A stretch of DNA of 64,000 bases from Mustelus asterias. Its lineage: Eukaryota. Positions 1 through 63,799 of this stretch are shown piece after piece (position 1 is the stretch's first letter; every line of letters starts with the position of its first letter). A program made the translations under genes and the position numbers. The stretch covers positions 2,170,001 to 2,234,000 of the forward strand of contig NW_027590122.1 of the NCBI RefSeq assembly GCF_964213995.1, in the 5' to 3' direction. The notes below the pieces were generated by a model. That model had not been told where the DNA came from. It made no database searches and saw only the letters and a list, made by a program, of their open reading frames with translations.

Positions 1-1487
1 GGATTGGCTATGCTAAATTGCCCCTTAAATGCAGGGGGATGCAGGTTACCTCAGGATTACAAGTTGGTTTCAGATTGAAAACGACATTTGGAGGTGATAG
101 TTTTCCTGCATCCTTTGAGTTGGTGAAGGTTGTGGTTTGGCAGGTTCTGTCAAAGTTCTTGTCCAGATGTAGATGTATAAAGTCCTCACCGTTCATTCCC
201 TCCCTGTTTCATCTTCATCTTTCTCCTCCCATTGAGGCTGAATTCTTGTGTATATCTGGACTGGGTGGCAGGTTTCCTGCATTGAAGGACATTAACAAAC
301 CATTTGGGTTTTTAATCACAATCCAGCAGCTTCCAGAGTCACTTCTTCCTTATGCCGGCTCCACAAATTACCAGATTCATTCAGCTCAATTTCACAACCT
401 GCCTTTGTGTTTATCACTGTTTTTTCTCCTCTTTAAGTTAATTTGCAGCCTTGAGAAATCCATGAGCCATGTACGTATTCAGTGTGAGAGATTGCAACCC
501 CTGAAGGAGCTGCTTCTCCACTTTTAGTTACAATTCTGTTCTGCCCCACGCTCCTGTTCGTTGGCTGCCCAGTGTGGAGGAGACTGGGGAGGGCAGAGGA
601 TCTTTTCCTGGACCTGTTCTTGGGGCTGGTTAAAACAGTAATTTGTAGTTCAGCAGAGGGTAACTTGGCTGTGGGCCCCTCTTCTGTGGTTTCACAGTAA
701 CTTCATTACAGTGTTACTGTCAGCTTTACTTGTGACTAATAAAAATAAACTTTAACTTTCTTGTCCATGCTCGTGTGGTCCTGGAGAGGGAGCAGACAGT
801 GTCGACTGAAACACTCGATATCTTCCACAACTCAGGGTACAGAGTGTCTCACAAACACTGGAAACAAAGTTCTGGTTTAGTTCAGATGGAAGTTCGATTG
901 GACCACAAGATTTGGGGAAACAAGATTTGAAATAATATTCCATGGAAACTAGAATTGTTTGTTGTGATTTTCTGTCCTGTGCTGACAGCGATACTGACTC
1001 TGTCAATGTCTTTTACAAGGTCCACAAGGGCGATGAATTGCAGATGGGAAATGAAAACCAAACATCACATCAAGAGCTGACAGAGTCACTCAATTCATCA
1101 GAACCTGAATATCATCGACCTTTAAATGTGGAAGGAGAAATGTTTGTCTGTTCTGGCGGTGGGGAACAATTTCAAACATCAGTGTGACTGGAAAAGCACC
1201 GAGACACACACCTGAGTGAGAGTGAACGGACTGGAAAGAGCTTTAACCAGTTACACAGCCTGAAAAAAACATCACACCATTCACAGCAGAGAACCATAAG
1301 ATCATAAGAATTAGGATCAGAATTAGGCCATTGGACTCATCGAGTCTGCTCCTCCATTCAATGAGATCACGGCTGATCTGATATGACAATCAAATTTTCT
1401 GCCTTGTCCCATAACCCTTAATAGCCTTACTTAGAAGCAATACACATGTGTGTGGACAAGGCTTGAACAGACAAGAACACCTGCACC

Positions 1488-2477
1488 ATGGAGAAACCAT
1501 GGAAATGTGGGGACTGTGGGAAGGGATTCAGTTACCCATCGCTGCTGGAAATGCATCGGCGCAGTCACACTGGGGAGAGACCATTCACCTGCTCCGTGTG
1601 CGGGAAAGGATTCATTCAGTCATCCCACCTGCTGACCCACCAGCAAGTTCACATTGAAGAGAGGCTTTTTAACCATGCTGACGGTGATCACAGCTCTAAA
1701 AGCCCTGAGGACCTGGTCACGCACCAATCTATTCACACCGAGAAACAGTTCTGCTGCTCTTACTGTGGGAAGTTATTTAAGCGATCACAGAATCTCATTG
1801 AACACAAACGCACTCATACTGGGGAAAGGCCGTTCACCTGCTCTGTGTGTGGGAAGGGATTCACACGATCATCCCACCTCGCTACACACCGACTGGTTCA
1901 CACTGATAACAGACCTTTCAAATGTACTGAATGTGAGAAGAGTTATAAAACCACAAGTGATCTGCTGATACACCAGCGAGTTCACAATGAGGAGCGGCCA
2001 TTCAGATGTACGGTGTGTGGGAAGGGATTCACTCTGTTATCCAGCCTCCAGAAACACCAGCGAGTTCACACCGGGGAGAGGTCGTTCACCTGCTCCTTGT
2101 GTGGAAAAGGATTCATTTATTTAACCAGCCTCAGATCACACCAACTTGTTCACTCGGATAAGAAACCTTTCAAATGTTCTGAATGTGAGAAGAGCTTTAA
2201 GACCTCAAGTGTTCTGCTGAGACACCAGCAAGTTCACTCCGGGGAGAGACCGTTCACCTGCTCTGACTGTGGAAAGGGATTCACTCGCTCATCCAACCTG
2301 CAAACACACCAGCACATTCACACCGGGGAGAAACCGTTCACTTGCTCTGAGTGCGGGAAGGGATTTTCTCACTCATCCCACCTGCTGAGACACCAACACA
2401 CTCACAATGGAGAGAGACCGTTCACCTTCTCTGAGTGTGAGATGGAATTCACTCAGTCAACCCATCTTCGAAATTGA
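1488..2477 (+). CDS. Tandem C2H2 zinc-finger protein, 10 canonical + 2 degenerate fingers, no effector domain
   Basis: 329-aa ORF from ACCATGG (MEKPWKC); CxxC-x12-HxxxH repeats with TGERPF linkers; followed by the family 3' UTR (ggttggattctg...catccaggactg). Confidence 0.9.
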   Translation: MEKPWKCGDCGKGFSYPSLLEMHRRSHTGERPFTCSVCGKGFIQSSHLLTHQQVHIEERLFNHADGDHSSKSPEDLVTHQSIHTEKQFCCSYCGKLFKRSQNLIEHKRTHTGERPFTCSVCGKGFTRSSHLATHRLVHTDNRPFKCTECEKSYKTTSDLLIHQRVHNEERPFRCTVCGKGFTLLSSLQKHQRVHTGERSFTCSLCGKGFIYLTSLRSHQLVHSDKKPFKCSECEKSFKTSSVLLRHQQVHSGERPFTCSDCGKGFTRSSNLQTHQHIHTGEKPFTCSECGKGFSHSSHLLRHQHTHNGERPFTFSECEMEFTQSTHLRN

Positions 2478-8030: not shown

Positions 8031-8900
8031 TCATCTGTGAACTCGCTGGTGTTTCACCAGATTGGATGATTCGGTAAATCTCTTCCCGCACTCGGAGCAG
8101 GTGAATGGCCTCTCCCCAGTGTGAATGCGCTGGTGTGTCAGCAGGTGGGATGATCGTGCAAATCCCTTTCCACACTCAGAACAGGTGAACGGCCTCACCT
8201 CAGTGTGAATTTGTTGATGTGTCAGCAGGTTGGAGGACTGACTGAATCCCTTCCCACACTTGGAGCAGATGAACGGCTTCAACCCAGTGTGAACTCGCTG
8301 ATGTACAGTGAGATGAGATGATCGCCTGAACCCAGTCCCACAGTGAGAGCACTGGAACGGTCTCTCCTCAGTGTGAACAAGCTGATGGGACATCAGTTCA
8401 CCAGAACTTTTAAAGCACTTCCCGCACTCTGGACATTTGAAAGGTCTCTTGTCAGTGTGAACTCGTTGGTGTGTCTGAAGGTGGGTTGCTGTCCTGAAAC
8501 TCTTCCCACACTTAGAGCAGCTGAACAGTGTGTACTCGGTGTGAATGCGCTGGTGCTCCCTCAGTCCGTGTGGGCTTTTAAAGCTCTTCTCACAATTGGA
8601 GCATTGAAACTCTCTCTTGTCAGTGTGAACTTGCTGATGTTTCAGCAGGTGGGATGAGCGAGTGAATCCGTTTCCACACACCGAGCAGGTGAACGGCCTC
8701 TCCCCGGTGTGGAGTCGCTCATGCAGCTGAAGGCAGATGAACTGAGCGAATCTCTTCCCACATACGGAACAAATGAACGGCCTCTCGCCGGTGTGTCTGC
8801 GTCGATGAATTTCCAGCTCAGATGGGGATCTGAATCCCTTCCCACAATCCACACATTTCCACCGTTTCTCCCTGGCGTGAACGGTGCTTTTTGCTTCCAT
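8031..8900 (-). CDS. Tandem C2H2 zinc-finger protein, 10 fingers
   Basis: Open frame 8999-8031 just after splice acceptor ttttacag (9005); first ATG at 8900 (aacATGG); 10 intact fingers. Confidence 0.88.
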   Translation of the reverse strand: MEAKSTVHAREKRWKCVDCGKGFRSPSELEIHRRRHTGERPFICSVCGKRFAQFICLQLHERLHTGERPFTCSVCGNGFTRSSHLLKHQQVHTDKREFQCSNCEKSFKSPHGLREHQRIHTEYTLFSCSKCGKSFRTATHLQTHQRVHTDKRPFKCPECGKCFKSSGELMSHQLVHTEERPFQCSHCGTGFRRSSHLTVHQRVHTGLKPFICSKCGKGFSQSSNLLTHQQIHTEVRPFTCSECGKGFARSSHLLTHQRIHTGERPFTCSECGKRFTESSNLVKHQRVHR

Positions 8901-9384
8901 GTTCAAAGGCCGATGATATTCAAGTCCTGATGAATCGAGTGACTCCGTCAGATTTTGATGTGATGTTTGGTTTGACTTTCCTGATCGTGAACCTTTCAAA
9001 TATTCTGTAAAATGAATTTAAGACAGAATCAAGGAAATATAAAAGAGAACCCAGAAAAACACATAGGCAGGTTGTGAAATTGAGCTAAATTAATCTTGTA
9101 ATTTGTGGGGCCAGCGCTAGGAAAAAGTGACCCTGAAAACTGCTGGTTTCTCATAAAAACCCAACTGGTTCACTAATGTTCTTTAGGGAAGGGAACCTGC
9201 CGCCCAGTCGAGGCTTACACAAGGCTCTGGCTTCTATGGGAGGAGAGAGAGAGGTGAAGGAGAGGGTAAAAGAGATGAACTTCATAGATCTGCAACTGAA
9301 TTTGAATTTTGAAAGAATCTCCCAAACCCATAACTCCACCCACTGGAAAGATAAGAGCAGCCGGTGCCTGGAAAAACCATCACC

Positions 9385-25309: not shown

Positions 25310-25796
25310 GGTGCAGGTGTCCTTACCTCTCTCTTGGGTGAACAATTAGTTGAAACTTCGTCCACACACAGAACAAGATTACAGTCTCTCCCCGCTGTGA
25401 ATGGTGTGATATTTATTCAGACTGTGTAACTGGTTAAAGCTCTTTAGTCAGTGCATTGGAACACACTCACTCAAGTGTGGCAGTGTGTTGATGCTTTTTC
25501 ACTCACACAGACATTTCAAATCTTTTCAAATCGACAGGCTGAACAATCATTTCTCCTTCTGGATTCAAAGTCCGATGATATTGAGGTCCCAAGGGATATG
25601 ACTCTGTCAGATCGAGACGTGACGTCTGAGATTTCGGCCTGTGATTCCTCTTTCAATATCCTGTAAAATGAGTTTACAAAAGTCATCAGTGTCAGTACAG
25701 GATAGAAATTCAGAACAGACAATTTCTATGGAACATTCTTTCCTCTCTCATTCCCCAAAAGCTGTAAATCTCCATCCCACACACTCTCTCCCCATT

Positions 25797-25985
25797 CTCA
25801 GCAGGTCTGGCAGCATCTGCATGGAGAGAAAAGAACTGATGTTTCAGAGCTTTGACAAAGGGTCATCGAGACAAGAAACATCAGCTCTTTTCTCTCCTTA
25901 CAGATGCTGCCAGACCTGCTGAAATTTTCCAGCATTTTCTCTCTTGGTTTCAGATTCCAGCATCCGCAGTAATTTGCTTTTATAA
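25797..25985. mobile_element. Penelope-derived fold-back repeat in ZNF intron (related copies at 28835-29000 and 53150-53410)
   Basis: cagcaggtctggcagcatctg...cagatgctgccagacctgctg inverted arms around a decayed hammerhead-like core. Confidence 0.55.
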
Positions 25986-29620: not shown

Positions 29621-32600
29621 TTTTTTTTATTTCAAAAATATACTTTATTCACAAAAAAAACTCTCCAATAAAACATTGCAAAATGACAGATCCAAAAGTC
29701 ATAAACAGTGCAAAAAAGAATCATTTTTACAGTACAATACAGTGCTTATTGACAAAACATTACATTCATTACATTTCATTACTTAAAACTATGTACATTC
29801 ATCAGAGTTTACTGTGTGCCGTTATTTATCAGGTTGGCACACAGTTACGCAGGCCGAGGGTATTCTGCAGTTACCCGGCCCTCGGTCTGCCTCGGTTGAG
29901 ACGCTTTACACGGTGGCCTTTCCCCATTGTGCCTTGGCGGCGGCTGCCCCAAGCTTGAGCGCGTCCCTGAGCACAGAGTCCTGGACCTTGGAATGTGCCA
30001 GTCTGCAACACTCGGTCGAGGACAATTCTTTCAGCTGGAAGATCAGCAAGTTTCGGGCGGACCAAAGCACGTCCTCCACCGAGTTGATGACCCTCCAGCA
30101 GCAGTTGATATTTGTCTCGGTGTGCGTCCCCGGAAACAGCCCGTAGAGCACAGAGTCCTGCGTCACCGAGCTGCCCGGGACGAACCGCGACAAATACCAC
30201 TGCACCTCACTCCAGACCTTCTTTGCAAAGGCACATTCCACAAGGAGGTGTGCGACCGTCTCATCAGCCCCGCAGCCGCTTCGAGGACAGCGTGCGATGA
30301 GGTTGAGACCCCGGGCGTGCATAAAGGATCTGACGGGGAGTGCCCTTCTCACCACCAGCCAGGCCAGGTCTTGGTGCTTGTTTGTGAGTTCTGGTGATGA
30401 GGCATTCTGCCAAATGACATTGACAGTCCGCTCAGGGAACCATCCGACAGGATCTGCCGTCTCCTTTTCTCTCAGGGCCTCAAGGACATTACGTGCTGAC
30501 CACTGTTTGATAGCCATGTGGTCAAAGGTGTGTTTCCGGAAGAATTTCTCCACGAAGGACAGGTGCTGCGGTACGGTCCAACTACTTGGAGCGTTCCGCG
30601 GCAATGTGGCCAGACCCATCCTCCGCAACACTTGGGACAGGTAGAACCTCAAAAAATAGTAGCACTTGCTGTTACTGTACCGAGGATCTACACACAGCTT
30701 GATGCAGCCGCACACAAAGGTGGCCATCAGGATGAGGGCGGCGTTGGGAACGTTTTTCCCTTCATTCTCTGGAGATTTGTGCATCGCCTCCCTCCGGACA
30801 CGATCCATCTTTGATCTCCAGATGAACTTAAAGATGGCCCGGGTCACTGCTGTTGCGCAGGACTTGGGGAGAGGCCACACCTGCGCCACGTACAACAACA
30901 CGGACAGAACCTCACATTGGATCACAAGGTTCTTCCCAGTAATGGAGAGGGAGCGTTGCTCCCACAATCCCAATTTTTGTCTGGCTTTGGCGATGCGCTC
31001 CTCCCAGTTTTTGGCGCATGCCCCTGCCGCTCCAAACCATATCCCCAGCACCTTGAGGTAGTCTGCCCTAATGGTGAAGGGGATAAAGGATGTGTCAGGC
31101 CAGTTCCCAAAGAACATGGCCTCACTCTTACCCTGGTTGACTTTGGCCCCCGAGGCCAGCTCGAACTGCTCACAGACTCGAAGGAGCCTACAAACAGACG
31201 AGGGGTCCGAGCAGAAGACAGCCACGTCATCCATGTAGAGGGAGGCTTTAACTTGCGTCCCTCCGCTGCCTGGGATTGTAACCCCTTTGATGCCTGGGTC
31301 GCTTCTGAGGGCCTCGGCAAAGGGTTCAATGCAACACACAAAAAGGACGGAGGAGAGAGGGCAGCCCTGCCTGACTCCAGACCTGATTTGAAACATATCT
31401 GATTCCCACCCATTGATTGAAACTGCGCTACTGATGTCTGTGTAGAGCAGTTGGATCCAATTGCAGATTCCCTCCCCAAAGCCCATTTTGGAGAGCACAT
31501 CCATCATGTAGCTGTGCGATATTCTGTCAAACGCCTTCTCCTGGTCTAGACTGATGAGGCAGGTGTCCACCTGCCTGTCCTGCACGTAGGCGATCGTATC
31601 CCTGAGTAGCGCGAGGCTATCAGAGATCTTCCTGCCGGGTACAGCACAGGTTTGATCAGGATGGATCACTGACCCCAGAACAGACTTGACCCGGTTGGCG
31701 ATGACCTTGGCCAGAATCTTGTAATCCACATTCAATAGTGAAATAGGTCTCCAATTTCTAATTTCTCCCCTTTCCCCCTTCTGCTTGTAGATGAGGGTAA
31801 TGATGCCTTTCCTCATGGATTCTGACATGCTGCCTTCCAGAAGCATACTCTCGTATACTTCCAGGAGGTCCGGGCCCGTCAAGTCCCACAATGCCGAGTA
31901 AAGCGCAGCCGGTAAGCCGTCGCTACCGGGAGTTTTACCCTTCTGAAGGGACTCGACTGCCTTTGTCAGCTCATCCAGAGCTACCGGTCTGTCCAGGCTC
32001 TCCCGCTCGCCGTCGTCCAAGACTTGTGTGATAGACGACAGGAAAGACTGGGAGGCCGTGCTGTCTGTTGGCTTCAGGTCATTCAGTCCGGCATAGAAGG
32101 ATTTGCAAATCCTCAGGATGTCAGACTGCGATGACCCTACAGAGCCATCTTCTTCCTTCAGGCTTGTGATCACAGAGGTTTCTCTGTGCACCTTCTGGAA
32201 GAAGAAGCGCGAGCACGTTTCGTCCTGCTCCACGGAGCGGACCCTGGACCGGAAGATAACCTTGGAGGCCTCTGAGGCAAAGAGCGAGGCTTACTGGCTC
32301 TTCACCTCCCGGAGGTCCTCCTTGACATCAACCCCCATCGACTGCAGTTGGAGTAGCTCCTGCATGCTTTTCTGGAGTCGGGACATTTCCCCCCGTCTCT
32401 CCCTGGCCTTCTAAACCCCTTTTCGGATAAAGAACCTCTTGATGTTGCCCTTGATGGTTTCCCACCAGAGCGATGGAGACTCAAAGAAGGGTTTCACGGT
32501 TCTCCAACCGTGGTAAACCCTCTTGAGTTCCTCGAGGTTCTCTGGGGTCAACAGTTCTACATTAAGCTTCCAGGACCCCCTGCCCACTTTCTGGTTTTGC

Positions 32601-33108
32601 TCCAGCTGACAGTCTGCCAGCAGGAGGCAGTGATCAGAGAAGAACACCGGCTTGACGTCGGTGGACCTGACCGTGAGCGCGGGATGCAAACATGAAGTCG
32701 ATCCTGGAGCGGACAGACCCGTCTGGCCGCGACCACGTGTATCTACGCTGCCCTCCGTCTGCTGGATCGCTGAAGACGTCGAGCAGCTTGGCATCTTTGA
32801 CTGTTTCCAGCAGGGCTCTGGACGTAGCGTCCAGTTTACTTTCGGCCCTGTTGGATCGGCCGGCCTTGTCAATGATACAGTTAAAGTCCCCACCCAGTAT
32901 GATTGGCCTGGAGGTGGTGAGTAGCAGTGGCAGCTGTTCAAAAAGTGCCAGCCGCTCGGTCTTGACGGCAGGGGCATACACATTAATCAGCCTGAGAGGG
33001 CAGTTTTTGTACGTGACGTCTGCTACGAGGAGGCGTCCTCCCACCACCTCCTTAACTTAGGAGACGGTGAAGTTGCCCCCCCGTAGCAGAATGCCGAGGC
33101 CGGATGAA
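29621..33108 (-). mobile_element. Tx1-clade non-LTR retrotransposon, 5'-truncated, ORF2 (APE endonuclease, RT, C-terminal zinc knuckle)
   Basis: INVYAP, GGDFNC, SRIDF, SDH endonuclease motifs; 775-aa open RT (GVRQGCPLS, YMDD; CxxxxC...HLLVEC); A-rich 3' UTR and tail; frameshifts at 32300-32700. Confidence 0.93.
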
Positions 33109-35450: not shown

Positions 35451-36715
35451 CTTTGAAATATGAACATGGTCCAGAAACAGTATTAACAAAGGCAGGGTCT
35501 GCAGTAATTTAAATAGGGGCATGGCTGGCACAGTAACTGAGACAGAGCTGTGAACAATGGGAACTCAGACAGGGTCTGGAGTAGTTCAAAAAGGCTCAGG
35601 TGTAATAATAACAGATAATAATAACTGAGACAGGGCCCAACTTAAAATAACCAGGGATGGGAACCAGGATTTTACGGCCCTTCTCCCCAGCGATACATTA
35701 TTGTCCTGTTGAACTAAATGGAGATTTAAATAGCTATCCAATTAAGCCCAAATCTTTCCCAATAGCCCTGCAATTTTGCCACTTTAAGAATGTATCGAAT
35801 TGTTTTTTTCAAAATTAATTAATGAATCTGATTCCACAACCCATTCAGGCAGTGCGCACCAACCAGATCACATCTTACCGTGTCAAATAGACATCTCCTC
35901 AATCTGGACTCTTGTTTCTTTGCACATTTTAAATCCATTCATCCTCTGGTTACCAACCCTCTTGCTGGTTGGAACAGTTCCTCCCCATTTACTCCTATCA
36001 AACCCCTCATGGCTTGAACACCTCAATTCAATCTCGCCCTAATCCCCTGACATTTCTCCAATTTCTCCTCGATGGTCTGTCCAATGAGGTGCAGCTTCAT
36101 TGTGCCGTCACTGATGTATTTATCTCGCTCTGACCAGGGGATCAGATCTTTAATCTCAGCTTCCCCCGAGTGTGGGACCTGGAGGGTCTTCACATCATTC
36201 ACAAACCACACCCCATTGACACATTGGTAAAGCAGAATGCTCAGCTTGTGAGAATATGTCTTGCCAGCTGGATCATAATCATTTACTGAGACAGAGAGAG
36301 TTGACAACTCATCCTCTTGCTGAATCTCATCATATCGCATGCGATTGCGATGATTGTTTTTCAGCCGCTGGATCCTTTGACCTTTTGGGAAAAAGGTAAC
36401 ATACCACTGAATCTTCAGTTTGAAATGGCTGGTCAAGAATGATGTCTGAATAGATGTTTGATTCATCATCTGATATCCTGTGATGTCCCAGAGGTGGCTG
36501 AATGTTTGAATCGGCAACACTCTATATTAGAGCCGGCGGGAATCCTGGCTCCTCACTTTCACTTTCAGTTCCCGGTTCTGATGAGGTATTCAGTGGGCGG
36601 GAACAATAAAATCCACCCTCCCACACCGGAACCATCCACATAAAACCCTCAACAATAGAGTTAAAGAAACAAAATCTCCCGAGGGATATCACGTGTGTGT
36701 GCAACGTCAGATAGA

Positions 36716-37926
36716 TGATCGCTTCTCGGCCTTTTGGCTAAGATCAAGTGTAGTATGGTCGGCAGCCCATGGTCGGCCGCGCTTGGTTGAGGTCATTAGG
36801 TTACACTGAAGCTTCATATGTTTCATATGAAGCAATTTTTTAAAGCGGCATCTCGGCCTTTTGGCTGGGATGCAAATGAGCTCAAGTCTTGGAGGAGGAA
36901 CCTCCCCCTTCTCCAATCAGCTTGGCTCATGTAGATCAGGCCCAGGACAGGGTGGTTTGGTCGCCTGCCCTGTCTTGTCAGAGATTTGAACAGGCTGAGT
37001 GAGTGGGCGAGGATATGGCAAATGGAGTATAACGTTGATAAATGCGAGGTTATACACTTTGGAGGAAATAATAACAAATGGGATTACTATCTCAATGGAA
37101 ACAAATCAAAACATGCTACCGTGCAAAGGGACCTGGGGGTCCTTGTGCATGAGACGCAAAAGCCCAGTCTGCATGTACAACAGGTGATCAAGAAGGTAAA
37201 TGGGATGTTGGCCTATATCGCGAGGGGAATAGAATATAAAAGCAGGGATGTCTTGATGCACCTGTACAGGGCATTGGTGAGGCCGCAGCTGTATTGGTCC
37301 CCTTATATGAGGAAGGATATATTGGCATTGGAGGGAGTGCAGAGAAGGTTCACCAGGTTGATACCGGAGATGAGGGGTTTGGATTATGAGGAGAGGCTGA
37401 GGAGATTGGGTTTGTACTCGTTGGAGTTTAGAAGGATGAGGGGGTATCTTATGGAGACTTATAAGATAATGCGGGGGCTGGATAGGGTGGAGGCGGAGAG
37501 ATTCTTTCCACTTAGTAAGGAAGTTAAAACGAGAGGACACAGCCTCAAAATAAAGGGGGGTCGGTTTAAGACAGAGTTGAGGAGGAACTTCTTCTCCCAG
37601 AGGGTGGTGAATCTCTGGAATTCTCTGCCCACTGAGGTGGTGGAGGCTACCTCGCTGAATATGTTTAAAGCGCGGATGGATGGATTCCTGATCGGTAAGG
37701 GAATTAAGGGTTATGGGGATCAGGCGGGTAAGTGGTACTGATCCACGTCAGATCAGCCATGATCTTATTGAATGGCGGGGCAGGCTCGAGGGGCTAGATG
37801 GCCTACTCCTGCTCCTATTTCTTATGTTCTTATGTTCTTATGTCAGCCTGGATCTGAAATGTCTCAACTTGTTGAGACTCTGAATTGGATTTGATTTGAT
37901 TGAATTGGAAAAGTATTTTTTTAAAA
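36716..37926 (+). mobile_element. U2 snRNA-headed short retroelement (about 345 bp excluding nested CR1)
   Basis: Exact U2 nt 1-39 at 36718-36756; tcagataga duplicated at 36707-36715 and 37927-37935; second copy at 57465-57581. Confidence 0.8.
36982..37840 (+). mobile_element. Young CR1 3' fragment nested in the U2-headed element
   Basis: 251-aa open ORF2 C-terminus; (ttcttatg)n tail; tgtcag on both sides (36976-36981, 37841-37846). Confidence 0.92.
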
Positions 37927-38764
37927 TCAGATAGAACTGAGTTTACCGAGCCAAAGAAGGAGGTGTTCAGAGCAGTGATCAGAATCTCCATCGGTGAAGT
38001 GGGTTTGGCAGGCAGCTCTCCCTCAACATCACTTCTCATGACCCTCTCCACTGACTCTGAATTCTCACATTGAGCGTCTGACATATTTCCTGAGTAACAG
38101 AAATCTCAGATCAAACACTGGGAAGAGTGAAGCGTTTATATTCTGTGTCAGACACAGACGCTGTCCCCTAGCCAATGACTCCATCCTTCTCCTCGTCAGT
38201 GCCTGGGGCTGAACCAGAGAACTCACAACCTTTTTTCCCATTTGACCCACAGATCAGCTTGCAATCCCCAAATGTCTGTCTCCTCTCTTCCACACTCATA
38301 CAGTGCAGAAGAGGCCACTGAGCCTGCACTGACTCTCTGACAGAGCACCTTACCCAGGCCATCTCCCCCACCCGGGCATGGGTGGACCAGGACAGGTTGT
38401 TGATGATCTGAACACCTCGAAACTTGAAGCTCTCGAACCATCTCCACTTCATCACCTTTGATGTCGACAAGGGCATGTCCTCCATTACATTTCAGTCACC
38501 CATCAGACTTCTCTTTTCGAGGGAAAAGCAGCCTCAGACTTTCCTGAGGGTTAAAAGCTCTCAGCTCTGGGATTATTCTTGTCAATCTACGTTGCTCCAT
38601 CTCCAGTGCCTCTCTTTCCTTCTTCTAAATGCAGATCACTAATTTTGACAGGGCTCCCAGTTTACTCTAACCCTGGTTCTAAACAAGTTGGCCATAACCT
38701 CCCTGCTTTTCAATTCTATGCCTCTGAAATGGAACCCTATATATGGGCCCCACACTTTAGGAAA

Positions 38765-45787: not shown

Positions 45788-46798
45788 TCACTCATGAACT
45801 TTTTGGTGTCTCAGCAGGTGGGATGAAACTTTGAATCCCTTCCCACACTGAGAGCAGGTGAACGGCCTCTCCCCAGTGTGAACTCGCTGGTGTGTCCCCA
45901 GGTTGGATAACCGAGTGAATCCCTTCCCACACTGAGAGCAGGTGAATGGTTTCTCCCCAGTGTGAACTCGCTGGTGTGTCTGCAGGTTGGATGACCGAGT
46001 GAATCCTTCCCCACACTGAGGGCAGATGAATGGCCTCTCTCCAGTGTGAACTCGCTGGTGTGCCTGCAGGTTGGATAACTGGCTGAACCCCTTCCCACAC
46101 TGAGAGCAGATAAATGGTCTCTCCCCAGTGTGAACTCGCTGGTGTCTCCGCAGGGTGGATAAATCAGTGAATCCCTTCCCACACTGAGAGCAGGTGAATG
46201 GTCTCTCTCCAGTGTGAACTCGCTGGTGCGTCTGGAGGCTGGATAAATGAGTGAATCCCTTCTCACACTGAGAGCAGATGAACGGTTTCTCCCCAGTGTG
46301 AACTCGCTGGTGTGTCTGCAGGTTAGATAGCTGACTGAACCCCTTCTCACACTGAGAGCAAATGAACGGTCTCTCCCCAGTGTGAACACGCTGGTGCGTC
46401 TGCAGGTTAGATAACTGACTGAACCCCTTCTCACACTGAGAGCAGGTGAACGGTCTCTCCCCAGTGTGAACTCGCTGGTGTGCCTGCAGGCTGGATAACT
46501 GACTGAATCCCTCCCCACACTGAGAGCAGGTGAAGGGCCTCTCCCCAGTGTGAACTCGCTGGTGGGTCTGCAGGCTGGATAACTGACTGAATCCCTCCCC
46601 ACACTGAGAGCAGGTGAACGGTTTCTCCCCAGTGTGAACTCGCTGGTGTGTCTGCAGCTGGGACAACCGAGTGAATCCCGCCCCACAGTGAGAGCAGGTA
46701 AATGGCCTCTCCCCAGTGTGGCTGCGCCGATGAGCTTCCAGCAGGGATGGGTATCTGTATCTCTTCCCACAGTCCCCACATTTCCATGGTTTCTCCAT
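45788..46798 (-). CDS. Tandem C2H2 zinc-finger protein, 12 fingers
   Basis: ATG at 46798 (MEKPWKC); homogeneous CSQC units; intact. Confidence 0.9.
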
Positions 46799-48509
46799 GG
46801 TGCAGGTGTCCTTGCCTCTCTCTTCAGTTGAAGACTCGTCCACACACAGAACAGTCCCCCCACCCCCGCTGTGAACAGTGTGATATTTATTCAGGCTGTG
46901 TAACTGGTTCAAGCTCAGTGCACTGGAACACTCTGACTCCAGTCTGGCAATGTGTTGGCGCTTTTCCAGTCACACTGATGTTTGAAATCTTTTCAAGTCA
47001 TCAGACCAGACAACCATTTTTCCTAGATTCAAAGGCTGATGATATTCAGGTCCCAAGGAATATGACTCTGTCAGATCGAGATGTGACGTTTGAGATTTCA
47101 GCTTGTGATTCCTCTTTCGATACCCTGTAAAATGAGTTTACAGAAGTCATCAGTGACAGTGCAGGATAGAAATTCAGAACAGACAATTCAAGTTTCTATT
47201 GAACATTCCTTCCTCTCTGCAGACTCGAAACGTTGGCTCTATTCTCTCTCTATCTAGGGGATAGTGTGGGAAATGGTGCTGAGGTAGATCAGCCAATTCT
47301 CCATGAATGTTTGAGGCAGTTCGATGGGCTGAATGGCCAACTGCAGCTCCGAAATCTTATGATTTTTTGACTGCTGGACAGGAAGCAGTGAGCATGGATC
47401 TGTCAATCAGCCGCAATCAGCACCTTCAGGAGAATTGGGAGGGTGAATATTAGATACAGCAGAGTGAGAATGGAGGGAGAGTGTGTGGGATGGAGATTTG
47501 CAGCTTTTGGGGAACTAGAGAGGAAAGAATGTTCATTAAAATAATAGAATTCTTACATCTTATCAACCGTCCCTGAGCCTTCACAATGAATCCCTCTTCT
47601 CAAGACACTCTTATCTCTGACTTGTCTGTGCTGCTCGCAGTCTCACAAAGCAGCTGTCTTTGCGCTGATATGAGAGGCCCTGCGAGGCAAGTTTAATGCT
47701 CCATGGCTGTGTGTTTACCATTCCCTCCCTTCATCTGAGCAGGAATATACTTCTCCTGGACTCTTGATATCACACTTTTAAAAGCTTCGCATTGGCCAGT
47801 CATTCCTTTCTCTTCAAACAGACTCACATAATCAACATCTGCTAGATCCTGCCTAATGCCCACAACATTGGCCCTGCTCCAGTTTAGGGCCTTAACCTGT
47901 GGATCACTCCTATCTTTTTCCAGAACTATTTAAAAACTAATAGTGTTCTGGTCACTGGACACAAAGTGCTCTCCGACTGACACTTCATTCACTTGCCCTA
48001 CTTCATTTCTTAAGAGTCTTATAGAAAGTGAGTCCAGCAATTAAAAATGAAAAATAAGGAGCTGGGAAATTAATTGAACAAGTATTTTGCCTCGGTCTTC
48101 ACAATAGAGGATACAGTTAAAACTCAGAAACAGCTGGAAATCAGAAAACAGAAGTGTGGGATGAACTCTGAAAAAGCACAATTACCAGGGAAGTGGTCCT
48201 CAGCAAACTGTTGGAGCTGTGGGCTGATGAGTCCTCGGGTCCTGCTGGGCTCCATTCTCGGGTCTTAACAGAGTGAGATCGTTGATGTGTTGTTTAATTT
48301 TCTAAAATTCCCCATTGGGAATTGGATAAATGGAATCAGTGGATGTGCTGTACTTAGATTTCCAGAAGACATTTGATGAGGTGAAACATTAAAGATTATT
48401 GCAGCAAATAAAAATTCATGCTGTGGGGATAACATATTGGCGTGGATAGAAAATTGGCTAACAGCAAACAGTGGGCAGAAATGGATCATTTTCTGGTTTG
48501 AGAGAGAGA

Positions 48510-57464: not shown

Positions 57465-57675
<211 letters not shown>

Positions 57676-61400: not shown

Positions 61401-62193
61401 GTGTTTGAATTCTGCGCTCCAGAGGACTGCGGAGCCTCAGTCATCAAATATTTTCAAGAGAGAGATTGGTAACTTTTGAGGCATTGAGCAACCTGGGGGA
61501 TAGTTTGGGAAATATTGGTCCTATGGAAATAGTGTGAGGTAGATCAGCCAATTCTCAATCAATGGTTGAAGCAGTTCGATGGGCTGAATGGCCAACTGCA
61601 GCTCCTATTTGTTATGATTTCTGTGCTGGACAGGAAGCAGTGAGCATGGATCTGTCAATCAGCCTCAATCAGCATCTTCAGGAAAATTGGGAGGGTGAAT
61701 ATTAGATACAGCAGAGTGAGAATGGAGGGAGAGTGTGTGGGATGGAGATTTACAGCTTTTGCACAATGAGAGAGGAAAGAATGTTCCATAGAAACTAGAA
61801 TGGTCTGTTTTGAATTTCTATTTCTATTTCTAACTCAATTTACAGGATATTGAAAGAGGATTTACAGGCTGAAATCTCAAATGTCACGTCTAGATCTGGC
61901 AGTCATATTCCTTGGGAGTGAAATATCATTGGCCTTTGAATCTGGAAGGGGAAATGTTTGTCCAGTCTGTCGATTTGAAAAAAAATTCAAGCATCAGTAT
62001 GACTGGAAAAGCACCAACACACTGCCACACTTGAGTGAGAGTATTCCAATGAACTGACTAAAGAGCTTTAACCAGTTACACAGCCTGAATAAATGTCACA
62101 CCATTCACAGTGAGGACAGACCGTACTGGTGTTGTGCCTGGACGAGGTTTCAACTGATTGTCCACCCAAGAGAGCGGCAAGGACACCTGCACC

Positions 62194-63246
62194 ATGGAGA
62201 AACCATGGAAATGTGCGGATTGTGGGAAGAGATACAGCGCCCCATCTCAGCTGGAAGCTCATCGGCGCAGTCACACTGGGGAGAGGCCGTTCATCTGCTC
62301 TCAGTGTGGGAAGGGATTCACTCTGTCATCCAGCCTGCAGACACACCAGCGAGTTCACACTGGAGAGAGGCCATTCGCCTGCTCTCAGTGTGGGAACAAA
62401 TTCACTCAGTTATCCAGCCTGCAGACACACCAGCGAGTTCACACTGGGGAGAGGCCGTTCACCTGCTCTCAGTGTGGGAAAGGATTCAGTCAGTTGTCCA
62501 GCCTGCGGACACACCAGCGAGTTCACACTGGGATGAGGCCATTCACCTGCTCTCAGTGTGGGAAGGGTTTCACTCGGTTATCGAACATGTGGAGACACCA
62601 GCGAGTTCACACTGGGGAGAGGCCATTCACCTGCTCTCAGTGTGGGAAGGGATTCAGTCAGTTTTCCAGCCTGCAGACACACCAGCGGGTTCATACTGGG
62701 GAGAGGCCGTTCACCTGCTCTCAGTGTGGGAAGGGATTCAGAGCTTCATCCAGCCTGCGGACACACCAGCGAGTTCACACTGGGGAGAGGCCGTTCACCT
62801 GCTCTCTGTGTGGGAAGGAATTCACTCGGTCCTGCCACCTGTGGAGACACCAGCGAGTTCACACTGGGGAGAGGCCATTCACCTGCTCTCAGTGTGGGGA
62901 GGGATTCAGAGCTTCTTCCAGCCTGCGGACTCACCAGCGAGTTCACACTGGGGAGAGACCGTTCACCTGCTCTCAGTGTGGAAAGGGATTCACTCGGTCA
63001 TCCAGCCTGCGGACACACCAGCGAGTTCACACTGGGGAGAGACCGTTCACCTGCTCTCAGTGTGGGAAGGCATTCATAACTTCATCCAGCCTGCGGACAC
63101 ACCAGCGAGTTCACACTGGGGAGAGGCCGTTCACCTGCTCTCAGTGTGGGAAGGGATTCACTCAGTCATCCCACCTGCGGAGGCACCAGCAAGTTCACAC
63201 TGGGGAGTGGCCGTTCACCTACTCTGTGTGGGAAGCGGTTCAGTGA
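62194..63246 (+). CDS. Tandem C2H2 zinc-finger protein, 12 fingers, with 3 more decayed fingers after a frameshift
   Basis: ATG 62194 (MEKPWKC); homogeneous CSQC units; residual fingers to about 63450 in another frame. Confidence 0.9.
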
Positions 63247-63799
63247 TTCATCCAGCCAGCAGAAACACCAACAAGTTCACACTGGGTGGAAACCATTCAC
63301 CTGCTCTGTGTATGGAAAGGGGTTCTCTCGGTTATTCTGCCTGCAGACACACCAGGGAATTCACACTGGGGAGAGACCGTTCAGCTGCTCTGTGTGTGAG
63401 AAGAGATTCAGTCTTTCATCTCAGCTGTTGGTACACCAGCGAGTTCACGAGTGGTTCCAGTGGTCGATTTTGCTGTTATTGTTTCTGCTTTCAATTATAT
63501 TGGTCAATGGGGAGGGTCGGAGGGTTTCTTTCTGCTGGACTGGCTGGTCTCACAACTTTGCCTCCAATGGCTGATGCTCTTGTCTTGTTGCGAATACCTG
63601 GTTTCAAATTTCACAAGGATCACAGAGTGACAGAGTGTGAGGAAGTTCAGAGATATTTAGTCAGCATTTCTGTTTGAAACCTCCCAAATGCCCATCCAAT
63701 TTCCTTTATAATTGTTTATTGTCTCCACTTCCTCCTCCCTCGTAGGCAGCGAGTTCCAGGTCATTACCATTCACTGCATCAAAATATTATTCCTCACAT

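Follow-up and report, generated by a model that had tools for sequence, protein, structure and literature searches.

A U2-headed, SINE-like retroposon family in Mustelus asterias and its probable link to U2 genes and a Keno-like LINE

Short interspersed elements (SINEs) headed by small nuclear RNA (snRNA) sequences are described as SINEU-1 to SINEU-3, which were reported only in crocodilians and target Mariner-N4 (Kojima 2015; PMC4494074). Both PMC4494074 and PMC5786205 leave open by what means SINEs with an snRNA head, lacking an internal promoter, are transcribed. In its accessible portion, a 2025 paper still cites SINEU only for crocodilians (PMC12054243), and the accessible portion of PMC5381603 lists no SINEU for cartilaginous fish. 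The U2 gene is itself a target of long interspersed elements (LINEs): the 3′ junction of Keno lies before U2 nucleotide (nt) 38 (PMC6136364 and PMC4640811, in part), and Utopia uses the same site with a restriction-like endonuclease, reptile Utopia making 20-bp duplications (PMC4640811, in part). U2 pieces also occur in tailless U2 retropseudogenes and snRNA/L1 chimeras, in which 3′-truncated U2 is joined 5′ of a retroposed RNA in one-off copies (PMC4494074, in part). Here, we describe a U2-headed element at positions 36707..37935 of a 64,000-nt stretch of the Mustelus asterias genome (NW_027590122.1, 2,170,001 to 2,234,000, forward strand; the window).

We read the element as a U2-derived retroposon that is likely copied by a Keno-like LINE of the Tx1 clade and likely transcribed mainly from copies residing in U2 genes at the Keno cut site; we give this reading a probability of about 0.65. 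No U2-derived SINE of cartilaginous fish was found in the literature searched, and Repbase, Dfam, subscription papers or supplements could hold one.

The window copy and its family

The element is a young, high-copy, non-coding retroposon. Its exact 18-nt tail matched 4,318 times genome-wide, compared with 0 for the reversed control, and U2 nt 11-31 occurred exactly 4,263 times; the first 30 of these heads led into the element in 24 cases and into an older family, named K, in 3, with 3 unassigned. A first look with the 5′ 264 nt gave 2,332 candidates, the best 40 full-length matches being 97-100% identical, and a 334-nt consensus was built from 20 uninterrupted copies. Target-site duplications (TSDs) were present at 14 of 21 loci (9 of 30 had been dropped as repeats of the same insertion) versus 16 of 420 flank swaps. 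In an unbiased sample, made up of the copies at the first 70 tails of contig C1, 32 of 70 had TSDs versus 11 of 400 flank swaps. The 5′ end lay within U2 nt 1-21 in 55 of 70 copies, 22 of them at nt 1-2. The thousands of copies, with TSDs above control, bear out the preliminary description of a multi-copy, TSD-flanked, U2-headed, SINEU-like retroposon.

Of 123 near-full copies, 110 belong to eleven subfamilies, each 0.8-4.5% from its own consensus; the differences between subfamilies lie in the hairpin loops and spare the stems. The window copy belongs to the youngest, subfamily A (0.8% from consensus), in which TSDs were found at 18 of 30 copies. The 3′ part without the U2 head was present as 85-99% relatives in sequencing runs of three other organisms (three studies; 3 of 4 runs positive, the fourth lacking cover, which may be a filter effect). 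A free right-arm monomer was considered and rejected: starts at nt 109-136 (4 of 70 copies) are so few that they fit plain truncation.

The head, hairpins, second U2 piece and flanking duplication that had been described for the window copy were all found at their coordinates. The 9-bp duplication TCAGATAGA starts at 36707 and 37927, its only two occurrences on the + strand of the window, and 39 of 39 head positions agree with the U2 gene of this genome. The features are as follows.

36707..36715 (+): left TSD, probably 10 bp originally (36706-36715), single copy in the empty paralogues L366-L368
36718..36756 (+): head, U2 nt 1-39 with stem I and the branch-point-pairing GTAGTA, by identity to the genome's U2 gene
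36757..36776 (+): variable loop/hairpin, marker of subfamily A (matched exactly at 590 places in the genome)
36777..36801 (+): segment with complementarity to the U2 head, predicted by duplex energy to fold back over U2 nt about 12-35
36811..36833 (+): hairpin with subfamily-variable loop
36834..36844 (+): single-stranded A-T6-A3 run, end of the left arm, similar to the T/A tail of the family itself
36848..36873 (+): second U2 stem I (nt 4/7-27), heading the right arm that derives from K
36851-36866 (+): U2 piece named in the preliminary description, present
36876..36929 (+): hairpin module 1, duplicate of the family K 5′ module, by shuffle tests
36931..36981 (+): hairpin module 2 (the K module; 3′ arm is diverged U2 nt about 40-52), split by the CR1
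36982..37846 (+): later insertion, 5′-truncated CR1-type LINE ending in (TTCTTATG)n, common to six segmental-duplicate copies
37847..37916 (+): 3′ part, in which diverged U2 nt about 53-100 runs into the 3′ end of U2/K, by profile and alignment
37861-37878 (+): hairpin aligned to U2 stem IIb, a base pair having changed from C-G through U-G to U-A
37917..37926 (+): T/A tail, by comparison with tails of other copies
37927..37935 (+): right TSD
57465..57581 (−): second copy, subfamily H, ended at about nt 139 by another LINE, 94.8% over 116 nt
29621..33108 (−): Keno-like Tx1, 5′-truncated, A tail, 95.3% to a U2-array copy, likely partner

Nine paralogues of the left flank were compared. Six are filled with the element and the same CR1-type fragment, and three are empty and read ATCAGA(C)A.. 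at the site. The insertion and its duplication are real because the empty paralogues hold the target once; the duplication was probably 10 bp, with TG added ahead of U2 nt 1. The six filled loci go back to a single insertion, of which segmental duplication within a cluster of zinc-finger genes made further copies. The fragment at 36982-37846, the same in all six, agrees with the earlier view that a CR1 inserted later inside the element. It is bounded by a 4-6 bp duplication or microhomology and has 49-54% identity to other LINE ORF2s among the examined loci; we take it to be CR1 partly from its C-terminal motifs. In the family consensus the second U2 piece spans nt 7-27, longer than first noted, and carries two substitutions in the window copy.

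Rfam scored U2 with 49.4 bits at 36718 and with 41.1 bits at 57581-57481, and neither window copy matched any other RNA family credibly; the diverged second copy noted before is thus also recognised as U2, and belongs to the older subfamily H. A classical SINE of RNA polymerase (Pol) III would have a tRNA, 7SL or 5S head and no internal terminator; the only head found by Rfam is U2, and internal oligo-T is present in all 11 subfamilies (T4 in both U2 pieces, T5-6 at nt 119-124). The run at 36834..36844 would stop Pol III. Nor does the element have the full set of Sm site and stems IIa, III and IV of a functional U2 (49 bits versus 175-190 for true genes), and alignment of real copies places the Sm site and stems III and IV in a deletion. 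Thousands of copies pass or approach the Rfam U2 cut-off and may be miscounted as U2 genes.

Ancestry of the element body

The preliminary description had proposed a U2 head joined to the remnant of a truncated Keno or Utopia element. In its favor, the last nucleotide of the head, nt 39, adjoins the site used by Keno and Utopia, and the T/A tail resembles the last bases of Keno. This model is highly improbable as a whole and, by the alignments below, largely refuted for nt 131-334. No similarity was found between the body and the 5.2-kb Keno-like Tx1 (BLAST of the element consensus gave two 11-nt chance words only, E 0.33), and the right arm and 3′ part trace to U2 by way of K. A tail derived from Keno was rejected on the same BLAST result and on the alignment of the last bases with the K/U2 3′ end.

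Family K was revealed by a census of 196 distinct U2 heads in the examined loci. It is about 220 nt long and collinear with U2 nt 1 to about 186; 2,826 candidates were found at first look, with a mean divergence of 7.2% among the 30 best. Copies of this near-full-length U2-like retroposon were seen at loci L245, L254, L255, L264 and L294-L323. With the head left out, K aligned to U2 40-191 with a score of 86 versus 27.6 ± 4.6 (0 of 1000 shuffles), and element nt 155-334 aligned to K with 100.5 versus 33.1 ± 5.8 (0 of 1000). A K profile, also headless, found U2 44-160 at E 2.7e-8 and the window at 37841-37907 at E 4.4e-6, with no match in the reversed window. The module of subfamily H matched K (47.5 versus 21.5 ± 3.7, 0 of 1000), and the score of module 1 against module 2 was reached by 6 of 1000 shuffles. 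In alignments of real copies, stem IIb, the Sm site and stem III are retained in K, where a hairpin replaces the branch-pairing region. In the element this module is duplicated, and all sequence from the Sm site up to the last few bases of the element is deleted. At the level of sequence comparison, these results show U2 ancestry of nt 1-39 and 131-334 and identify the 3′ hairpin as U2 stem IIb. We infer the order U2, then K, then the element.

The left arm (nt 40-130) is the only part without a traced source: 463 of 1000 shuffles aligned to K as well. An Rfam alignment hinted that nt about 47-130 could be diverged U2 47-113 with an Sm site; this was rejected, since 36-89 of 200 shuffles were as good across the 5 subfamilies covered. 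The duplex between the left-arm segment and the head has −32.8 kcal/mol, versus −20.5 ± 3.1 in shuffles (0 of 500 as stable), and U2's own nt 40-100 gave 100 of 500 in the same test. The U2 head is therefore predicted to be masked by fold-back of the left arm. Masking as a general rule for Keno and K was rejected (396, 31, 410 and 291 of 500 shuffles); the prediction applies to the element family only. At one locus the left arm is repeated three times via two homologous heads, which shows a possible way of adding arms.

Structure could also point to master copies that are variant snRNA genes useful to the host, with dispersed copies as their retropseudogenes: a real element copy folds with z −7.8, stems are fixed and loops variable, the change in stem IIb is compensated, and K kept the Sm site and stem III. 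We hold this very unlikely. At least 11 subfamilies succeeded one another with rapid turnover, the Sm site was deleted, the head is predicted to be masked, no dedicated gene array was found, and SINE masters would also be expected under selection on structure.

Copies in U2 genes and the partner LINE

Contig C24 carries true U2 genes in two arrays (1,833-bp and 8,035-bp), and contig C21 in a 448-bp type-B cluster (175 bits). Both regions contain a 5.2-kb LINE with a U2-derived head, a CCHC ORF1 (PF23057, PF23058, PF00098) and an APE-RT-zf-RVT ORF2 (PF03372, PF00078, PF13966). In array copies on both contigs its A tail is followed by U2 nt 38 onward, and one C21 copy has a 1,144-aa open frame. 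The window holds a 3.5-kb copy, 3.6 kb away from the element. Among 602 exact tails of this Keno-like LINE, only 1 of the first 30 led into U2 38+, so strict U2 specificity is absent and its specificity is relaxed in this genome.

The link to the Keno site that had been suggested from the window copy is met in the U2 genes themselves, where element copies sit at nt 37/38, and the predicted master loci, with U2 upstream flank and a downstream U2 remainder, occur in two kinds of U2 array. Locus L085 has two copies: the first coincides with the start site of a type-A unit, and the second has U2 38-54 duplicated (17 nt) and is followed by an intact U2 38-191; L136 has one copy inside a type-B unit. 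Among 14 pattern matches, U2 38-47 or further follows 10 of 12 element tails. Dispersed units carry the traces of such places. A 1.65-kb piece of type-B array at L140 (U2-B 98-185, spacer and three copies) lies within an 18-bp TSD and ends in an element tail; L146 and L156 hold a U2 piece, a spacer end and a copy within 16-18 bp TSDs; at L126 the TSD surrounds U2 33-53, a copy and U2 38-58; and at L142 and L124 it surrounds a copy, a U2 remainder and a Keno 3′ end. No TSD was found at L143, L155 and L016, three of the seven units scanned. Array spacer, a U2 remainder or a Keno tail inside dispersed, TSD-bounded units shows that copies residing in U2 served as donors; U2-array donors are shown for four subfamilies. 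Dispersed matches to the type-B leader were the element in 7 of 8 cases.

U2 pieces added before heads were found at 56 joins (38 outside arrays), none of them at the U2 3′ end. In 30 of 30 joins examined, the addition ended at nt 48-57 and led into the element family (27) or K (3).

Several observations weigh against our reading. No U2-resident copy of subfamily A was found, the eight resident or transduced copies typed being B, C, D and J; type-A promoter-linked heads belong to the element in only 1 of 54 cases; and only 10 of about 4,300 tails adjoin U2 38+. Several transduced units begin upstream of U2 nt 1 and therefore point to read-through rather than initiation at an snRNA promoter. 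Many 5′ joins use ATC microhomology and are also compatible with template switching. No transcript of the element was seen; one sequencing run, presumed to be RNA, contains the body, which counts neither for nor against expression. Without K, the direct alignment of element and U2 is weak (31 of 1000 shuffles), Rfam at E<=0.01 missed 2 of 2 K copies, no extended tail is common to element and Keno, and the target motif described below was chosen post hoc, from the copies themselves.

The same element and partner might instead draw on another transcription source, an internal Pol II element or chance flanking promoters, with the U2-resident copies as by-products and the extra heads added by template switching onto U2 RNA fragments. 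The missing subfamily A donor and the many distinct 5′ joins, often at 3-nt microhomology, are in its favor, as are words in the body which we take to be an octamer (36870-36877), a CCAAT word (36913-36920) and an 8-nt match to the U2-A upstream element (36978-36981/37847-37850). These motifs are possibly a 3′-located promoter that helps tandem neighbours; their spacing fits poorly, and their position within conserved RNA stems can account for why they are conserved. We regard this alternative as unlikely, because template switching onto mature U2 cannot supply TSD-bounded units with U2-array spacer and downstream U2, and because additions stop at nt 48-57, the far edge of the Keno duplication (38-54/58), and never at the U2 3′ end. 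U2 loci are thus probably the main source of element RNA, and the internal T runs suggest transcription by Pol II.

Element and Keno-like LINE also share a target preference. Away from U2, both give 10-20 bp TSDs. With 7 tandem cases set aside, 11 of 22 element TSDs showed G(C/T)|A, versus a 15% background; for Keno, 4 of 8 TSDs showed AGC|A. A U2-type head lay within 75 nt downstream of 9 of 70 element, 6 of 30 Keno and 4 of 28 subfamily A tails, versus 6 of 1,240 control windows, and both favour existing U2-type heads as hot spots. Antisense element or Keno copies were observed about 10-15 nt 3′ of the heads of older copies at L264, L280, L244, L246, L225 and L158, near the expected position of the second-strand cut.

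A different poly(A)-tailed L1/Tx1 family could be the main mobiliser, Keno acting only at U2 genes: 99.8% of tails lie away from U2 sites, and no LINE tail in common was found in a survey that did not take in other L1/Tx1 families. The Keno-like family, too, lies scattered through the genome and agrees with the element in TSD range, AGC|A motif and hot spots, and we consider such a second mobiliser decidedly unlikely. The Keno-like ORF2 is very probably the main mobiliser.

The history that we propose would start with a U2 variant that gained a hairpin at the branch-point region and spread as K. A later lineage would have dropped the Sm site and stems III-IV and duplicated the 5′ module, and gained the new left arm, with a fresh U2 1-39 head and a fold-back segment masking it. 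The Keno-like endonuclease would nick U2 genes between nt 37 and 38, as the observed junctions indicate. An element inserted at the nick would restore U2 nt 1-37 seamlessly by its own head, or else leave U2 1 to about 50-58 ahead of it; a copy at the Keno site is therefore placed behind U2 upstream DNA. Pol II would transcribe the U2-resident units, some by array read-through, and reverse transcription from the T/A tail at loose G(C/T)|A sites would yield the 10-20 bp duplications seen around transduced units. Dispersed heads may become new hot spots for both partners. There are even odds that this one genome keeps the whole path from U2 through K to a dimeric SINE with a masked head, plus a self-sustaining SINE/LINE loop through U2 genes. 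In such a loop the LINE would replant the SINE in U2 genes, which would lend promoter and fresh heads, and the dispersed heads would serve as landing sites.

The arrays showed further features of their own. The type-B genes (L135-L138, C21 28.05-28.08 Mb) are 89% identical to type A and form a 448-bp unit, most units having Keno-like insertions. In the 1,833-bp array (L081-L084), at least nine units are damaged at the Keno site: U2 1-37 runs into a single or double repeat of nt 18-37/18-29, after which U2 resumes with nt about 50-191. This lesion has spread along the array. The 8,035-bp array (L086, L089) has 16 tandem units, each made up of an intact U2 gene and a second U2 interrupted by a Keno-like copy of full length with frameshifts; amplification of the array thus multiplied the LINE as well. 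A second U2-site Tx1 family, 75-84% identical to the first, was seen at L357, L059 and L087-L089, some copies internally deleted and in tandem; its 3′ junction lies in front of a variant U2 target that matches from nt 40. A variant at L063/L064 has its second head extended as type-B U2 up to nt 94 and then linked to a Tx1-like 3′ fragment, with duplication in tandem.

Elsewhere, the window is part of a segmentally duplicated zinc-finger cluster, with C2H2 exons at 1467-2477 (+), 8031-9017 (−) and 45788-46969 (−). A near-perfect long inverted repeat at 25796-25924 gave weak miRNA-family matches on both strands, far below cut-off, and is probably two repeat fragments head to head. A stop-free 539-aa frame at 62058-63677 (+) had only a weak repeat-family match and is probably a tandem repeat.

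Comparison with known systems

Keno and the likely partner LINE have in common an APE endonuclease and, at U2 nt 38, the 3′ flank TCTGTTCTTATCAGTTTAAT; the element uses the same junction (PMC4640811 and PMC6136364, in part). Unlike Keno, the element is non-coding, and it is not a Keno deletion derivative, the homology tests of body and tail being negative. Unlike Utopia, the U2-site LINEs examined are of the APE type, no separate search for Utopia having been made. Tailless U2 retropseudogenes and snRNA/L1 chimeras are one-off joins, whereas the element is a fixed unit with thousands of copies and subfamilies.

The element has every SINEU feature that was checked and works like SINEU. Both have a U2-derived head, fewer than 500 nt, an A-rich tail, TSDs and internal oligo-T, as well as repeated 5′ addition of U2 pieces and tandem insertions around the TSD. 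Both are linked to a Tx1-clade LINE of the Keno-related group; the shared target preference was observed, and mobilisation by this partner is likely. Like SINEU-3, the element resembles an internally deleted U2. Unlike SINEU, its target link is to the U2 genes themselves, with donors documented in U2 arrays; the older, near-full-length U2-like family K survives, and the element head is predicted to be masked. The local intermediate K makes an origin independent of crocodilian SINEU the likelier one, and such an origin is probable.

If the proposed cycle is true, it would answer how promoterless snRNA-headed SINEs are transcribed and would establish a separate origin of such SINEs beyond the crocodilians. 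The question is now directly testable because the family is young, with identifiable U2-array donors and a near-intact partner LINE. The families further offer a graded series for a structural RNA turning parasite, and suggest that a SINE can loosen the targeting of a site-specific LINE by spreading its recognition sequence.

Two better-known systems invite comparison. Alu monomers derive from 7SL RNA, and Alu has an internal Pol III promoter; the element shares with Alu the internal deletion and dimerisation of a structural RNA and differs from it in lacking such a promoter. R2 is co-transcribed with rRNA genes and is autonomous; like R2, the element would use the promoter of its target gene, and unlike R2, it is not autonomous.

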